From Octopus vulgaris (Eukaryota), in assembly GCA_951406725.2 (NCBI GenBank), contig OX597822.1, forward strand, positions 60,140,001-60,204,000: a stretch of DNA of 64,000 nt, read 5' to 3'. Within the stretch, counting starts at the first letter, position 1, and every line of letters begins with the position of its first letter. Shown one piece after another: positions 7,002-56,577 of the stretch. The position numbers and the translations under genes are program-made. The notes beneath the pieces are model-generated. The model was not told where the DNA came from. It saw only the letters and a list, made by a program, of their open reading frames with translations, and searched no databases.

Positions 7002-7449
7002 ATGTATGTATGTATGTATGTACGTTCGTACGTATGTATGTACATACATATGTATAAATGTATGTATGTATGTATGTATGTATGTACATACGTACATATG
7101 TATATATGTATGTATGTAGTGTTTGAAGTAGTGTACAGATATTGTATATTGAGAAAAAGGGAGCAGTCAGAATTTTGGATAATTCTTTATTAGCGCTTTT
7201 GTTCATTCAGCTGAACTCTTCAAGACAAAAATTTTGGTTTTAATCTTTGTCTTGAAGAGTTCAGTTAAACAAACGAAAGCACTAATAAAGAATTATCCAA
7301 ATAATAATAATAATAATAATAATAATAATAATAATAATAATAATAAATAATAATAATAATAATAAATAATAATAACAACAACAACAACAGTAATAATAAT
7401 AATAATAATAATAACAATAAAAATGATAATATTAATAATAAATTCTGCT

Positions 7450-8655
7450 CCTCATGGAATTACATGGTCACTTTCACTGTGAAACTAACAACTTAAAAGA
7501 CCAAGAAGCATCACGGAGGTGGCTCAGCAAGGGTGACCTTAAAAAGAAAACTGAAAGCCTAATCATTGCTGACCAGGACAAGGCATTAAATAGCAGGTCA
7601 ATGAAAAATGTATATATGTACCAAAAGTGCAACAAACCTCTGCAGAATGTGTTGGAAGAAGGCTTAAACCGTGATTCACATTTTTAGTGCACGTGAAAGT
7701 CTTGTGCAGAATGAGTACAAGTCCAAACATGACAAGGTAGCCTTATACTTTCACTGGCTACTATGTCAGAAGCATGGATATGTGTGGACAGATCCAGGAA
7801 GGCAAAGATCCCCTGGAACTTTGACTTTCAGACAGACAAAGTGTTTTACTGACACTCTGTCAGTTACAATGATGAGGGTTCCAGTTAGAAACACCTTGTC
7901 TGTCTGAAAGTCAAAGTTCCAGGGGATCTTTGCCTTCCTGGATCTGTCCATTGCCTTTTCTGATATATGTTGGTGCCAAGCACCCATTACCACATATCCA
8001 TGCTTCTGACATAGTAGCCAGTGAAAGTATAAGGCTACCTTGTCATGTTTGGACTTGTACTCATTCTGCACAAGACTTTCACGTGCACTAAAAATGTGAA
8101 TCACAGTTTAAGCCTTCTTCCCACACATTCTGCACTTGTGGTGCATATATTCATTTTTCATTGAGTTGCTATTTAATGCCTTGTCCTGGTCAGCAATGAT
8201 TAGGCTTTCAGTCTTCTTTTCTAGGTCGCCCTTGCTGAGCCACCTCCATGATGCTTCTTGGTCTTTAGGAGGGACAAACAAGAGTGCCTAATAGTTGGCA
8301 TGGCAGTGCCAGGAGATCAACATATTATCGTGAAAGAAAGAGGAAAGATTGACAAATATGGAGATCTGAGAATTGAGGTCGCCAAGATGTGATGGCTGCA
8401 AGAGTCAAACATAAAGGCGGCTGTTCCTGTTGTCATTGGAGTTTTGGATCAATACCACCCAACCTGGACACTTTAGAAATACCTTACAATCTAGGTGTAT
8501 CTCAAAAATCAGCTTTACTTGGAACTGCATGCATACTGTGTAAAGTTCTGTCTGTCTGAGGTCCTTGTGACTTGGCAGATCATACAAACCCCTGGTACAC
8601 ACAATATCTTCAATGTACAACATCACACTGTTGAATACTGTGTGACACCTTCAAT
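7450..8655. mobile_element. R4/Dong-like RLE LINE fragments in a +/-/+ (inverted-duplicated) arrangement
   Basis: WL.KGDLK..TESLIIA.QD.AL, Y..KHD.VA..HW.LC, KYGDLRIEV, VPVVIG; flanked by (TAA)n. Confidence 0.85.
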
Positions 8656-8939
8656 AATAATAATCCTGCACAAGGCCTGAAATTTTTGAGAGGGATTTAG
8701 TTGATTACATCAACCCCAATGCACAACTGGTACTTATTTTATTGACCCTGAAAGAACGAGAGGCAAAGTTGACTTCAGCAGAACTTGAACTCAGAACACA
8801 GAGACAGACAAAATGTTGTTAAACCTTTTGTCCAATGTGCTAATGATTCTGCCAGCTCACCACCTTAATAATAATAAAATAACAACATGTCAAAATTCCA
8901 CTGAACAAATCAATTCAAACAATTAATTAAAAGTCTAAC

Positions 8940-9146
8940 CTGATCAGCATATTTGTTGCAGTTGGGGTGGCTTGGATCCGGAGAAAAATAACCATTTTCT
9001 TCTTCTTTGAAGCCATCATGAGACCAATAACTGTAGTCAAAATTAAATTTGTGAACACTTTCTGCATTTTTAGGGTCAGTGATTCTTGTCTCACTGCCAT
9101 TCATATTAATAACAAGAGTAGCATTTCGTTCTTTTTCTCTTGAGTT
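8940..9146 (-). CDS. KIF28P: KIF28P-like kinesin coding exon 2 (NSREKERNATLVINMNG...KFNFDYSYWSHDGF...KYADQ)
   Basis: ttttag acceptor, 207 nt open, GTTAGA donor; kinesin-3 FDYSYWSH motif. Confidence 0.93.
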
Positions 9147-10265
9147 CTAAAAGAATTGTGTTAAGGTGTAATTACTGATTCAGTTTTCATTTTAAAAATT
9201 TTAGTATTTGTTCACATTGAAGAATAAAAGATTGGAACTGTTCACTAATGAAAACTGATGAAGAAATTGAATATCATATATGTATACGTATATACACATA
9301 CACACTTATATATATTTATGTGTTAACATGTATTTTAGGATACATTAATTACATATTTTCTGTATCCAAATATGTTGATGCAACAGAAATGAATGTTGAT
9401 TTTGTATGGAGAATTCAACAATTAAGGATGTGATTTTCTGTATCCATATTTTTGTAGTCTAATACTCTGAATTTCTCAAAATTCTTCAAAATGATATTTA
9501 GATCTACCTGTCATACATGAGGAATTATGCATTTATTGGTGTCTGTTTAATACAGTTAACCAAATTCATTTAAAACTGAGTTCTTTATTGATATCTGTCA
9601 GGATTTTTTAGTCCCTTTTTGTTTCTTATTATAATTACACACACACACATACACACACAATTAATAATTTTAAATTTGGGTATATATATATATATATATA
9701 TATACACCTTGTAGTATTCCATTTAAAGCCCTTCGCTGTATTTGGCTACCTGATATCAACAGTATGGATTTCATGGCAAAAGTGACTGATAGAATAAGTA
9801 CTAGACTTCCAAAGAATAAGTCCTGGGATCGATTTGCTCAACTAAAGGCGGTGCCCCAGCATGGCCGCAGTTAAATGACTGAAACAAGTAAAAGAGTAAA
9901 AGAGAGTAAAGAGTATACAACTATCAATTAGGTTGACTTGCAGCAATTCAAAATGTAGGGATATTATAGCTGCCGAGAAGTCGATTGGCGATAGTTTGTG
10001 TTTCAATCAATCTTGTACATGTACAATAGAATAAAAGTATAGACACACCAGTTGTATGAAATTATACTTGTACGTTGGTACATACAAGTATAATTATGGT
10101 ATGAGCTATTAGAGATATTTATGCTTCTCTGCTTTTTGTTCTAAATATGTTGCTCTTAAAGATTATTTTAGCCAATTAAATATAAACATGCAAGTCTGTT
10201 CCACTTCAATATACTGAAATGTAATAAAGTGTTGCAGTTTAATTTAAATGAGTTTTTAATTATCA

Positions 10266-53835: not shown

Positions 53836-54739
53836 TTCTCCAAAATTGTATAACTGTAACGAAAATGAACTAAGAAAACTAGCTCACGCATATTTTTAAT
53901 GAAATTTTGTAGAGATACGTTTTTGTGGGTGTAGATTATGATTAAGTTGATACAATTTAATAAAGAAAAATTTCTTTTTGAAGAGTTTCGGAACATTCCG
54001 CTCCTCCTCTGATTTCGTTACCACCAATTTCTGAACTTAAATATTTTCATTCTTTTTTTCATGTTTACATGTTTGAAACATCAACATTATGTTTCTACTT
54101 TACCGTATTTCGGTAAAATGTCATTTAAAAATAGGCATCTTAAAGGGAGTCTTGAGGAAATAAAGTTGGGAGACATACGGTAAAGAATGATTCGTAACTC
54201 CTGCCCATCAAATTTTACGTATTATTAACATAATCGTTACGTATACCCTCGAAAATGTATCTCCACAGAATTTCATCAATGATTATGAGAAAGTTATACA
54301 GAAACTCATTCCGAGATACCAAACTGTAGTTATACACATCAAAACTTTTTCTTTTCTTCATAACTTTCCTAAAAAGACATATTCCTAATGAAATTTTGTT
54401 GAGAAACGTTTTCAAGGGTGTAGATTTAGGATGTGCATTTTATGAAACCCAACATCTACACTTTCGAAATCGTATTTTTGAAAAATGCTAACTGAATATA
54501 TGCATTTTAAAGAGAGATGTAAGGGAACAGCCACGAGAAAGGAAGAACGACCCGAAATCGCTCAAAAGAATTCTTTTTTAAATTTTGTCAGCGAAGTCAT
54601 TGTCTACACATTCAAAAAGGTATATCTGTAAAGTTTTATTTTAAAAATGCGTTTCTTTCATAAAATTAAGATAAAACAGTCAGTGATTAGCAGTGGCACC
54701 AAACTGTAGTTATGCCTTTGTGTGTACGTTATCTTTGTA

Positions 54740-54931
54740 TGTATAATAAACAACAGCAGCAAGTGCGACAGACCGACCGTGTAAATGTGGCAGTAGGAGA
54801 AGAGAAATATACACTTAAACAACCGGAACTTCCGTCCCAGCATAAGATGCCAACCAGAAGTAACAGCACGTGGCTTCTGTAATGTGATATTCCACTAAAT
54901 TTGCAACTTTGATCAATAACTAACGTTGATA
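54740..54931 (+). promoter_or_regulatory. Probable HEATR3 promoter / 5' UTR
   Basis: Locally CpG-retaining; ETS-like CCGGAA/CTTCCG (about 54823-54833) and E-box CACGTG upstream of the ATG. Confidence 0.45.
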
Positions 54932-55060
54932 ATGGGGAAAAGTAAACATCGAAAGCGATATGGACTACCTCGGCCACAACCCACCGGGATCGTTGCTAAT
55001 TTAAACGAAGAGGAACAATCTGTTACTAATGGCCCATCGTTTGTTACGCTTATCGATCAA
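54932..55060 (+). CDS. HEATR3: HEAT repeat-containing protein 3 (Syo1 orthologue), exon 1 (MGKSKHRKRYGLPRPQPTG...TLIDQ)
   Basis: N-terminus resembles HEATR3 MGKS..KR...P.PTG; GTAAGT donor in phase 0. Confidence 0.9.
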
Positions 55061-56577
55061 GTAAGTACATTACATTATACATACTTGTATTTTACACACA
55101 CTAGCGATCCAGTGAGGGAGCATGTTAAGTAGCAGTCAAAATCTTCCCCCAATCAAACCCTTGCCGCCTCAGGGGGAAAAAAATTATAAGATAAATTAGA
55201 TGATTTTGTTTCTGCTATATACAGAAAGATGGGATAATTACGTCTGCAATGCCTTTAATCATAGATCTACTCTGTCGGAGCTGTCTTGGTGATAACAACA
55301 TACAAACCATCAGTAGATGTATCAAAATATATAAAACACGTTTATCGTTGAGAATATTTTGGAGCCATTAAAAATATGTTTTTATTTCAGTTGAATTCTT
55401 TTGTTATTTATTTTTGTGTCGAATTATTTCGCGGATCATTTTTCTATTGAATTATTTTATCGTTTATCGTGTTAAAATAATTCCCACTAAAAATAAATAT
55501 AAGTTAATGTTAAATAGACAGAAGTCACTTGAAAGAAAGCTAATTCAGACGGTTGGTACGAGTTAAAAATTGATGCAAAAGTGGCATGTTTGTTATACTG
55601 AAAGATATCTTCTCCACCCCAACCTCAAACAATGTTATAACATTTTTCTTTACCTTAAATAAGCTAATTTGCACGTTTCCTTCTTATTGAAGTATAGAAT
55701 TAAACATTTTTGGATCGATCTAGTAATTTGTGTATTCCCTCCCCAAACTATCATTTGTTAAAATCTAATCATACCCTCTTCGTTGTTTAAATGTATGCTA
55801 CCGGCATGTTATTTTTCTAAGCCTATTTTTGTTTGTTTTTATACAAAACACCTAAACCATAAAAGTGTTCTCTCTCTCTCTCTCTCTCTCTCTCTCTCTC
55901 TCTCTCTCTATCTATCTATCTATCTATCTATCTATCTATCTATCTATCTATCTCTCTCTCTATATAAATGTTTGTTGGAGATTAAGTAGGACAGTTACTG
56001 TGCTGATAACGCCTACTGAGACAGAAACATGACGCTATCCTTGCCTTCAGACAATTTCTGTTTTCCACAATGGATTGTCAGTTTTGGAGAATCTTTGAGA
56101 TTACTTTCTCTTTTCTTTTCATCTGGAGTACCAATTGAAACAAACAAATGATCTGCCTTCTCTCAAAGTAGAGACAATTCTAGCAAATCAAGAACCTATC
56201 TTGAATGTTATTTAACCTACTTCTGTTCCATGAGTGTTAAAATACTGACCTCCCTTTATTTCTCTTAGCTTATTTTCGTTTATATGTGTGTGTGTACATA
56301 TATATGTATGTGTGTTAGAAGAAATAAGGTACTCAGAAATCTGGGTGGTTTTACATTTACAGATTTTTTATTAATATATCACGTTTTTATAAATCATATA
56401 TTAAAATCTGGAGATTCTACTAGAGTAGATGCAAGCGCTAATATATGATTTATAAAAACATGTGACATATTAATAAAAATCTGTAAATTTAAAACCATCC
56501 AGATTTCTGAGTACCTTATTTCTTCTAATACATAATACCTGTACATCACCTCCAAACCTTCTAATATATATGTGTAT

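Follow-up and report, generated by a model that had tools for sequence, protein, structure and literature searches.

The window analysed here, a 64,000-nt stretch of Octopus vulgaris DNA (assembly GCA_951406725.2, contig OX597822.1, positions 60,140,001 to 60,204,000 of the forward strand), carries ten inverted repeats, designated E1 to E10, within positions 7174..56529. All ten had been proposed in an earlier note made from the sequence alone, and self-BLAST of the repeat-masked window recovered 10 out of 10 at the same coordinates, with bit scores of 101-283, whereas in 10 dinucleotide shuffles the highest-scoring local inverted repeat reached 30-42 bits; they are genuine and far above chance. 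The arms span 58-177 aligned columns (previously put at about 55-175 bp) and are 75-100% identical, with 100% identity in E2 and 75-93% in the other nine elements. The elements are mutually unrelated, as had been stated, since their pairwise matches consist only of chance pieces of 14-18 nt. All 20 outer ends (tails included) lie no more than 12 nt from a microsatellite, compared with 18.6% of background positions, and one arm continues as an unpaired extension in eight of the ten elements, the exceptions being E5 (none) and E9 (long end on both arms). Three further inverted repeats, at 7496-8266, 29253-29614 and 52212-52302, were detected by self-BLAST of the window. All ten palindromes are head-to-head, truncated insertions in simple repeats, each from a different and unrelated Penelope-type family; the palindrome itself is not the mobile unit. 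The earlier note was right about the origin from Penelope-like elements (PLEs), the microsatellite targeting, the pLTR hammerheads and the one-arm tail. The features are, in window coordinates:

7118..7301, minus strand: E1, Neptune-like PLE 3' end, from self-BLAST and RT/GIY-YIG remnants in family locus L316; sense arm plus tail 7230-7118 (minus strand), tail ~7118-7175, inverted tailless arm 7238-7301; hammerhead degenerate, with a TTGAAGA core.
25043..25237, plus strand: E2, Hydra-like PLE 3' end, with a near full-length family copy (L498) containing RT and EN; perfect 120-bp palindrome centred on AGCT and ~75-nt tail 25163-25237.
25101..25151, plus strand: type-I hammerhead of E2, mirrored at 25054-25104 on the minus strand; stem I of 6 bp, stem II with U.U at its base, cleavage predicted after 25145.
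25274..25578, plus strand: E3, Hydra-like PLE 3' end, with an EN ORF upstream in L169, L298 and L052; palindrome 25274-25510 with duplicated filler at the junction, tail 25511-25578.
25309..25369, minus strand: type-I hammerhead of E3, intact on the minus arm and mutated in the plus-arm copy.
25906..26345, plus strand: E4, ~288-nt head-to-tail unit lacking genes, tRNA-like module in its interior, no hammerhead found; the left arm is tailless and longer, the right arm shorter and followed by the tail 26247-26345.
25965..26037, minus strand: tRNA-like module of E4 (Rfam RF00005, 32.7 bits against a gathering score of 29).
26879..27263, plus strand: E5, ~545-nt head-to-tail unit lacking genes, in which no hammerhead was found; the two arms end at the short end, and the spacer is part of the left arm.
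30322..30680, minus strand: E6, Hydra-like PLE 3' end, tail ~30322-30407, RT and EN remnants in L312; family hammerhead motif just upstream of the portion kept in the window copy.
30721..31122, minus strand: E7, gene-less head-to-tail unit of ~520 nt, tail ~30721-30830; hammerhead present in the family, window copy truncated downstream of the motif.
34015..34402, plus strand: E8, Hydra-like PLE 3' end, tail ~34220-34402, EN ORF linked in L338; hammerhead-like motif of the family upstream of the portion kept in the window copy.
42190..42855, plus strand: E9, gene-less, retrozyme-like head-to-tail unit of ~467 nt; one full unit 42391-42851 after an inverted 175-nt copy, long end reached by both arms.
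42576..42636, plus strand: type-I hammerhead of E9, in the spacer, single polarity.
56311..56564, plus strand: E10, Neptune-like PLE 3' end, tail ~56533-56564, EN ORF upstream in family loci; degenerate hammerhead in the spacer, with GCAA for GAAA.

Six of the ten families (E1, E2, E3, E6, E8 and E10) are plain 5'-truncated ends of gene-bearing PLEs and trace to RT/GIY-YIG genes, so that the description of the whole set as a non-autonomous population does not hold. Upstream of the terminal repeat, RT and EN were found for E1 (L316), E2 (L498) and E6 (L312, with an EN remnant in L207), the C-terminal part of RT together with EN for E10 (L452), and EN only for E3 (L169 and L298) and E8 (L338, in which the EN ORF is followed by a 3.4-kb UTR and then by the E8 end). 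An EN ORF lay upstream of the E10 end at at least 7 of 20 loci. No linked ORF was present in the 10 kb upstream of five E8, three E7, four E10 and three E5 copies, the gene links of E8 and E10 deriving from other loci. Pfam matches to GIY-YIG were weak (E 0.005-0.017, below the curated cut-off), two ORF pieces of L216 gave no Pfam match, and a homologue search with the EN piece of L169 returned none among longer proteins, which is weak evidence. The labels Hydra-like and Neptune-like come from motif comparison with the sections of PMC8557442 drawn on here and are not tree-based: relatives of E2, E3, E6 and E8 display the Hydra motifs (DKT, CxCX5C, no CCHH, CxxC and CxH), and those of E1 and E10 a core CxxC and two His. 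A classification of E2 as a gene-less unit was rejected on the genes seen in 10-kb stretches, including the near full-length copy. The families display the hallmarks of EN+ PLEs, namely RT with a C-terminal GIY-YIG upstream of the terminal repeat, a preference for inserting in microsatellites, (TA)n among them, and, in all ten families, an adjacent inverted 5'-truncated copy with a tail on one end.

Hammerheads were counted by a relaxed type-I scan of the whole window with 100 shuffles as background, the relaxed form being used because a strict scan missed E2 on account of its U.U pair. Four foldable motifs were found, all of them within elements (E2 on both strands, E3 on the minus strand and the E9 spacer), as against 0.05 per shuffled window, in agreement with the enrichment expected from the earlier note. 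The type-I features (CUGANGA and GAAA core, NUH site and three stems) are present in E2, E3 and E9 in the window and also in some copies of the E6 and E7 families; none was found in E4 or E5. Among the five elements to which hammerheads had been attributed, E2, E3 and E9 carry intact motifs but E1 and E10 degenerate ones. Their placement on both arms or in the spacer stands for E2 and E9 but fails for the mutated plus-arm copy of E3, both polarities being intact in only one of the ten elements (E2). Within the families, the core is intact in 32 of 33 E2 instances and the hammerhead in 54 of 71 E3 and 16 of 22 E9 instances, compared with an intact core in 0 of 20 for E1 and 0 of 12 for E10, in which GCAA replaces GAAA in 12 of 12. 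Among 150 of the 173 matches listed in an Rfam scan of the window there were microsatellite-driven miRNA matches, one U6 and one tRNA match, and no hammerhead family. Only 2 of 30 rows had 5' ends within 3 nt of the predicted E9 cut site, with no clear pile-up. Families with degenerate cores (E1, E10), or in which none was found (E4, E5), spread likewise, and the hammerhead appears to be a passenger of the terminal repeat that is dispensable for insertion.

The remaining families (E4, E5, E7 and E9) are gene-less head-to-tail units of 290-550 nt that bear the same insertion marks as the gene-bearing families. End-to-start junctions occurred in 12 of 45 places for E4, 5 of 41 places for E5, 2 of 25 loci for E7 and 36 of 71 places for E9, in which the tandems are only partial, the longest comprising ~1.7 units. 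E7 and E9, which pair a type-I hammerhead with a gene-less tandem in the 150-450(-970) bp range, correspond to non-LTR retrozymes, one of the two origins that the earlier note had offered for the set; E4 and E5, without a hammerhead, and the six gene-bearing families do not. E9-like pieces and the end-to-start joint were seen in contigs of four runs guessed as RNA, but this joint also exists in DNA, so its occurrence there is no evidence of expression. The E3 junction was not spanned by contigs from three other runs, a result that is uninformative either way. The tRNA-like part of E4 occupies unit positions 56-128 and has a 9-nt anticodon loop. ARAGORN called no tRNA for it, and RF00005 scored above the gathering score in 7 of the 10 E4 loci scanned. 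Across 26 copies, 89.7% of stem cells were paired, and the anticodon stem showed two compensatory pairs. E4 thus contains a tRNA-related segment, as do tRNA-derived SINEs, but does not start at the tRNA 5' end, 55 nt of E4 family sequence coming first. All four gene-less families likely borrow the PLE machinery, being mobilised in trans by the same proteins.

Each of the ten dispersed families has a tailed and a tailless 3' end, both fixed, along with junctions that vary and microsatellite flanks; the tail, on one arm, is 30-180 nt long. Scoring covered the best 40 candidates per search. An inverted arm was present in 144 of 260 rows and absent within 1.5 kb in the other 116, and 132 pairs were retained after 12 of the 144 rows had been dropped (tandem-ambiguous pieces, one duplicate locus and foreign insertions). 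One tail was found in 128 of the 132 pairs and two tails in two; since most queries included the tail, only the rarity of two-tailed pairs is informative. When an internal probe was used for young E2, 13 of 13 pairs had one tail. Crossed pairs, in which the tail is on the shorter arm and the tailless arm reaches further upstream, made up 15 of 42 pairs and, in an E9 sample drawn by tail only, 5 of 7, and numbered three among young E2; L052, L069, L119, L122, L316, L338 and L498 were inspected by eye. Such pairs are impossible from a single-cDNA copy and count for two separate priming events. Moreover, loop-less palindromes centred on AGCT represent 7 of 25 inverted E2 rows, and this junction offers a stem of 0-1 bp to a hairpin versus 4-6 bp to two annealing ends. 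Non-majority letters were common to both arms more often than to arms of other loci in E2 (0.49 vs 0.14) and E6 (0.47 vs 0.09), and weakly so in E1 and E3 (0.16-0.24 vs 0.09-0.12); in young E2, divergence was 0.27% between arms as against 0.55%.

We consider it probable that each palindrome is a 5'-truncated head-to-head PLE insertion in a microsatellite, made from two cDNAs primed from both cut ends and joined at their 3' ends; the arm ends suggest that the two arms were probably copied from RNA independently of each other. The RT-endonuclease would prime one cDNA per cut end of the target, with a tail on the cDNA begun at the outer start and none on that begun at the inner start. Both cDNAs would halt independently, often just beyond the hammerhead, the ends would be joined via microhomology or filler, and both arms would derive from the same source copy. 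A PLE protein has been reported to cut and extend both target strands, to start at two RNA sites bracketing the tail and to form a predicted dimer (PMC11167929). The intermediate is, however, deduced from sequence, allele sharing between arms could reflect later gene conversion, an autonomous partner for E4, E5, E7 and E9 is putative (L327 is a hint for E5), and the E7 head-to-tail junction was seen at only two of the 25 loci.

The main competitor, which we regard as unlikely but by no means negligible, accepts the same PLE origin and has the inverted arm made by hairpin self-priming, after which the endonuclease trims the tail off one random end. Self-priming is the published reading of junction palindromes (PMC3846280), the tail has been attributed to EN-mediated resolution (PMC8557442), and both the alleles common to the two arms and the commoner placement of the tail on the longer arm (27 of 42, in a query-biased set) suit it. 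A self-primed hairpin trimmed later by the endonuclease could also yield crossed pairs, but this extra step is needed for 15 of 42 and 5 of 7 pairs, the loop-less AGCT junctions offer no usable stem, and in PMC11167929 the tail is traced to two start sites of the RT and extension is shown for both strands. The simple hairpin self-priming of the earlier note is contradicted by the crossed pairs and the loop-less junctions.

Self-contained non-autonomous fold-back elements that replicate through rod-like RNAs carrying ribozymes of both polarities are very improbable and largely refuted. In E2 either strand carries an intact hammerhead and the AGCT junction is a recurrent one, but centres differ from copy to copy, many rows have no inverted arm nearby, and E2 forms the terminus of a gene-bearing element, non-inverted E2 copies (L399, L414) also stopping at the junction spot; a putative rod-like RNA of both polarities could apply to E2 alone. 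MITE-like DNA transposons targeting TA, suggested by short inverted repeats adjoining TA and by hundreds to thousands of first-look candidates, can be practically dismissed, as variable centres and asymmetric ends replace a fixed interior between symmetric TIRs, 5' truncation gradients and head-to-tail junctions speak against them, and the long copies with RT/GIY-YIG genes upstream refute them. Assembly artefacts from read fold-backs, which the identical E2 arms might suggest, are just as implausible given the 75-93% identity in nine of ten elements, one-sided tails at family-fixed positions and the genome-wide recurrence of the architecture.

Returning to two-ended priming, we tentatively propose, as a possibility that we hold somewhat less probable than not, that PLEs insert through a tailed and a tailless cDNA joined head-to-head, that this machinery is parasitised by gene-less concatemeric RNAs including the ribozyme-free E4, and that the tRNA-like fold of E4, kept by compensatory changes, replaces the hammerhead as a processing signal (RNase P/Z cleavage) or promoter, making E4 a Penelope-dependent counterpart of SINEs.

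Overall, the finding is mostly known as a footprint of PLEs; what is new is the count bearing on mechanism and the unit with a tRNA-like part. Neither two-ended priming for PLE inverted repeats nor a tRNA-bearing non-autonomous PLE was found in the titles and abstract starts of the papers listed, a coverage outside which subscription papers, Repbase and supplements fall. PMC8557442 treats the origin of PLE inverted repeats as unsettled, and the one-tail rule and the crossed pairs make it a matter of counting, with an outcome that speaks for two-ended priming rather than the self-priming of the literature. In annotation, palindromes of this kind can easily be mistaken for MITEs or microRNA hairpins. 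As far as the cited sections of Craig et al. 2021 (PMC8557442) and Arkhipova et al. 2013 (PMC3846280) describe them, EN+ PLEs of the Hydra and Neptune clades share with the octopus families 5' truncation, an adjacent inverted 5'-truncated copy, a one-end tail, (TA)n targeting, a pLTR hammerhead, together with a C-terminal GIY-YIG. In contrast, the octopus tails measure ~30-180 nt versus the published 30-40 nt, the octopus 3' UTRs reach 3.5 kb, and the octopus pair counts argue against the published self-priming reading. Anole Poseidon in vitro (Frangieh et al. 2024, PMC11167929, in the part cited) likewise has two start sites bracketing the tail, both-strand cutting and extension, AT-rich targets and a hammerhead dispensable for insertion; the link from both-strand priming to head-to-head insertions is ours. 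Like animal non-LTR retrozymes (Cervera and de la Pena 2020, PMC7229834; Li et al. 2026, bioRxiv 10.64898/2026.07.22.740005), E7 and E9 are gene-less, AT-rich head-to-tail units of 467-520 nt with a type-I hammerhead. Unlike them, E9 forms only partial tandems, dispersed with PLE insertion marks, E7 and E9 are known here from DNA sequence, and E4 and E5 are without a hammerhead. Mobilisation of retrozymes by PLE proteins was argued from homology by Li et al. 2026, and gene-less tandem units that bear the full PLE insertion signature with and without ribozymes give it structural support. Non-autonomous Chlamys elements such as MRC1 are also gene-less, with pLTRs and head-to-tail insertions, but in the cited part of PMC8557442 they share 3' ends with autonomous families, and any such octopus partner is putative. 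Finally, E4 extends the class of PLE-marked gene-less units to a tRNA-bearing one: it resembles tRNA-derived SINEs and the small-RNA-bearing TRIMs Helenus and Ajax (PMC10886601, in the part cited) as a gene-less retroelement with a tRNA-like segment, but its tRNA-like part is internal, its unit is arranged head-to-tail, and its marks are of PLE type rather than LINE or LTR type.

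All ten inverted repeats proposed in the earlier note (E1–E10, numbered in order along the window) were recovered at their positions by self-BLAST of the repeat-masked window, at 101–283 bits as against a best score of 30–42 bits in ten dinucleotide shuffles of the window, and with arm identities of 75–100%. Sequence comparison among the ten confirmed that they are mutually unrelated, and the claimed adjacency to microsatellites also held: one lies within 12 nt of 20 out of 20 outer ends (tails, the one-sided extensions at the 3′ end of one arm, being counted), compared with 18.6% of background positions. 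The palindrome itself is not the element. Searches of the 2.8-Gb assembly (227 contigs; best 40 candidates scored per search) placed every element in a dispersed family, with 82 to 3991 first-look candidates each, totals not to be read as copy numbers. In the E3 family, 28 distinct copies have constant outer ends and a centre that differs from copy to copy, and one arm continues into a 70-nt extension; 3′ ends fall at two positions in every family, one with a tail and one without. Among 260 rows from all ten families (the window's own ten copies counted), an inverted copy is present upstream within 1.5 kb in 144 and absent in 116. These variable centres and missing arms leave the proposed system of rod-like, double-polarity ribozyme elements unsupported. 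The architecture of the families is that described for Penelope-like elements (PLEs) in the available parts of two reports, namely 5′ truncation, an adjoining inverted truncated copy, a one-ended tail and a (TA)n bias (PMC8557442; PMC3846280); PLE terminal repeats (pseudo-LTRs, pLTRs) hold minimal hammerheads (PMC7229834, available part). The suggested Penelope-like origin is borne out by this architecture and by six families with PLE genes upstream. Different PLE families are repeatedly neighbours within the same (TA)n tracts at many loci (e.g. L229, L169, L085 and L220), and the window too has insertion piles (E2–E5 and E6–E7).

The E1, E2, E3, E6, E8 and E10 families are the ends of gene-bearing, ordinary PLEs that code for an endonuclease (EN) of the GIY-YIG type. 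At locus L316, a short tailed E1 arm faces, in head-to-head orientation, a decayed ORF followed by a long UTR and an E1 end that has no tail; the ORF order is reverse transcriptase (RT), then GIY-YIG with a core CxxC and two His. For E10, at least 7 of 20 loci have an EN ORF of this type upstream of the E10 end. The E2 locus L498 reads inverted pLTR, pLTR (hammerhead and tail), two-frame ORF, 3.5-kb microsatellite-like UTR and tailless end, and its ORF motifs (DKT, GLYRDD, CxCX5C, CxxC and CxH) agree with the Hydra clade as characterized in the available part of PMC8557442. A Hydra-like EN type is linked to E3 (L169, L298 and L052), E6 (L312 and L207) and E8 (L338 and L337); Pfam GIY-YIG matches were under the cut-off, and the Hydra-like and Neptune-like labels are putative, being drawn from motifs alone. 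The claim of a non-autonomous population accordingly fails for these six families and may apply to the four gene-less ones (E4, E5, E7 and E9). A very young, putatively Hydra-like E2 subfamily (L471–L506; 916 candidates) has at least 40 copies identical across a 136-nt probe; because its 3.5-kb 3′ UTR is mostly cryptic microsatellite, it spreads simple-repeat DNA together with its own target type. A full-length, apparently Hydra-like relative of E8 (L216:4167–7350) has a hammerhead in which stem II is very long, as well as, between RT and EN, a long asparagine-rich stretch of a kind known from rotifer Penelopes (PMC3846280, available part). At the E2 flank, a decayed, Neptune-like GIY-YIG coding remnant (window 24434–24857, minus strand) adjoins an (AT)27 tract and is not followed by a terminal repeat from any of the ten families.

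Scanning the window for type-I hammerheads under relaxed rules returned four motifs, every one within the elements, compared with 0.05 per window in 100 shuffles, an enrichment over shuffled sequence.

Hammerhead motifs in the window (relaxed type-I scan)
E2, both strands: hammerhead motifs
E3, minus strand: hammerhead motif
E9, spacer: hammerhead motif

Folding prediction gave a three-way junction as the minimum-energy structure for the E2 motif and not for those of E3 and E9. Intact cores were found in 32/33 (E2), 54/71 (E3) and 16/22 (E9) family instances. Of the five hammerhead-bearing elements claimed, these three are upheld, while E1 and E10 have cores that are degenerate family-wide (0/20 and 0/12 intact), so that these two would be expected not to cleave; the same scan found no hammerhead in E4 or E5. 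Hammerheads of the E6, E7 and E8 families (L194, L224 and L250) have unusually long stem II inserts (35–100 nt) and palindromic stem III loops, and standard searches would miss them.

E4, E5, E7 and E9 are gene-less head-to-tail units. A tail passing directly into the beginning of a further unit was seen for E9 (unit 467 nt) in 36 of 71 places, for E4 (288 nt) in 12 of 45, for E5 (~545 nt) in 5 of 41 and for E7 (~520 nt) in 2 of 25 loci. Remnants of PLE proteins are present at 16 of the 182 places of these families, among which no full gene was seen to continue a tail. At L327:740–1320 (= L174), a Hydra-like EN ORF ends ~70 nt before the 3′ part of E5, after which comes a full E5 unit; this join is either a template switch or a hint, the single one of its kind, of E5's autonomous partner. 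The E4 unit contains a tRNA-like segment (unit position 56–128) that scores above Rfam's gathering score in the window copy and at 7 of the 10 loci that were scanned. Pairing is kept in 89.7% of stem cells over 26 copies, and two subfamilies differ at two pairs of the anticodon stem, with both partners changed in each; this is modest evidence because one lineage split is counted many times. An anticodon loop of 9 nt speaks against a role as a decoding tRNA.

The earlier note attributed the inverted arm to hairpin self-priming, an idea also published for PLEs (PMC3846280, available part). If one cDNA folded back and copied itself, the second arm would be merely a sub-copy of the first, and the tail should lie on the arm reaching further upstream. 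After 12 ambiguous rows were left out, 132 pairs of head-to-head arms were scored, with one tail in 128, two in 2 and none in 2; because the tail was part of most queries, this count is telling only in how seldom two tails occur. In 42 pairs the two arms differ in 5′ length by at least 40 nt; of these, by automatic calls, 27 have the tail on the longer arm (uncrossed), as self-priming predicts, and 15 on the shorter (crossed). Among 30 E9 rows retrieved with the tail alone, 14 were one-tail pairs (5 crossed, 2 uncrossed and 7 near-equal), and 16 10-kb stretches of the young E2 subfamily, some picked for visible pairs, contained 13 clear pairs, all one-tailed and 3 of them crossed. Loci L052, L069, L119, L122, L316, L338 and L498 were read by eye. 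In E2, 7 of 25 inverted rows have a loop-less palindrome centred on AGCT, where a hairpin stem would have just 0–1 bp, compared with 4–6 bp for two annealing ends; E3 junctions contain duplicated filler. Crossed pairs and loop-less junctions contradict simple self-priming, which would be viable only if one tail were trimmed at random and which we consider unlikely.

E2 copies, inverted or not, often stop at the 5′ edge of hammerhead stem I (window 25101–25106; L399 and L414), which suggests an RT stop or an RNA end; the AGCT stop probably marks where RT halts at the ribozyme edge, because non-inverted copies end there too. Non-majority letters are common to same-locus arms at 0.16–0.49, against 0.07–0.14 between loci, and young E2 arms diverge by 0.27% within pairs and 0.55% between loci, so the two arms either had a single source or became homogenised afterwards. 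A PLE protein predicted to be dimeric cuts and extends both strands in vitro, uses two start sites that bracket the tail and does not depend on the ribozyme (PMC11167929, available part). From the pair counts, junctions, arm sharing and in vitro data, we infer that the inverted arm probably reflects two priming events joined at cDNA ends, a reading to be set against the excess of uncrossed over crossed pairs in a query-biased set of the best 40 matches per query. Two cDNAs would be primed separately and their ends then joined head-to-head.

The window also contains a 488-aa LINE RT ORF (39105–40571, minus strand), presumably RTE-like, and transposase-like remnants (34645–36456) that we take to be Tc1/mariner-like. 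A larger inverted duplication without TA flanks (7496–8266; 144 nt at 99%) consists of a LINE-like RT fragment similar to an ORF at 13915–14649 (minus strand) and is possibly a LINE fold-back, the LINE label being tentative. Weaker inverted repeats lie at 29253–29614, apparently two opposed SINE-like copies, and at 52212–52302, a short palindrome whose centre is AACCCT-like, an (AACCCT)n-like tract being found at 53467–53531. A U6 snRNA copy (41680–41783, minus strand; 89 bits), with a (TA)n tract on one side and a SINE-like repeat on the other, is likely a retrocopy or chimera.

PLEs had already been tallied in an octopus repeat annotation (PMC13282606, available part), and the six gene-bearing families are known biology. 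The apparently new parts are the pair count, for what it says about how PLEs work, and the unit that carries a tRNA-like segment; a literature search, with Repbase and supplements outside its scope, found no counterpart of either. Non-autonomous PLEs have been reported in Chlamydomonas (PMC8557442), and a 2026 preprint derives non-LTR retrozymes from PLE terminal repeats (bioRxiv 10.64898/2026.07.22.740005), both in the parts available. The E7 and E9 families, which carry hammerheads, correspond to non-LTR retrozymes as defined by sequence, though with only partial tandems seen (up to ~1.7 units in E9). LINE-1 twin priming, as presented in the available part of bioRxiv 2024.12.14.628481, is an analogy only to the two-ended priming proposed here for PLEs.
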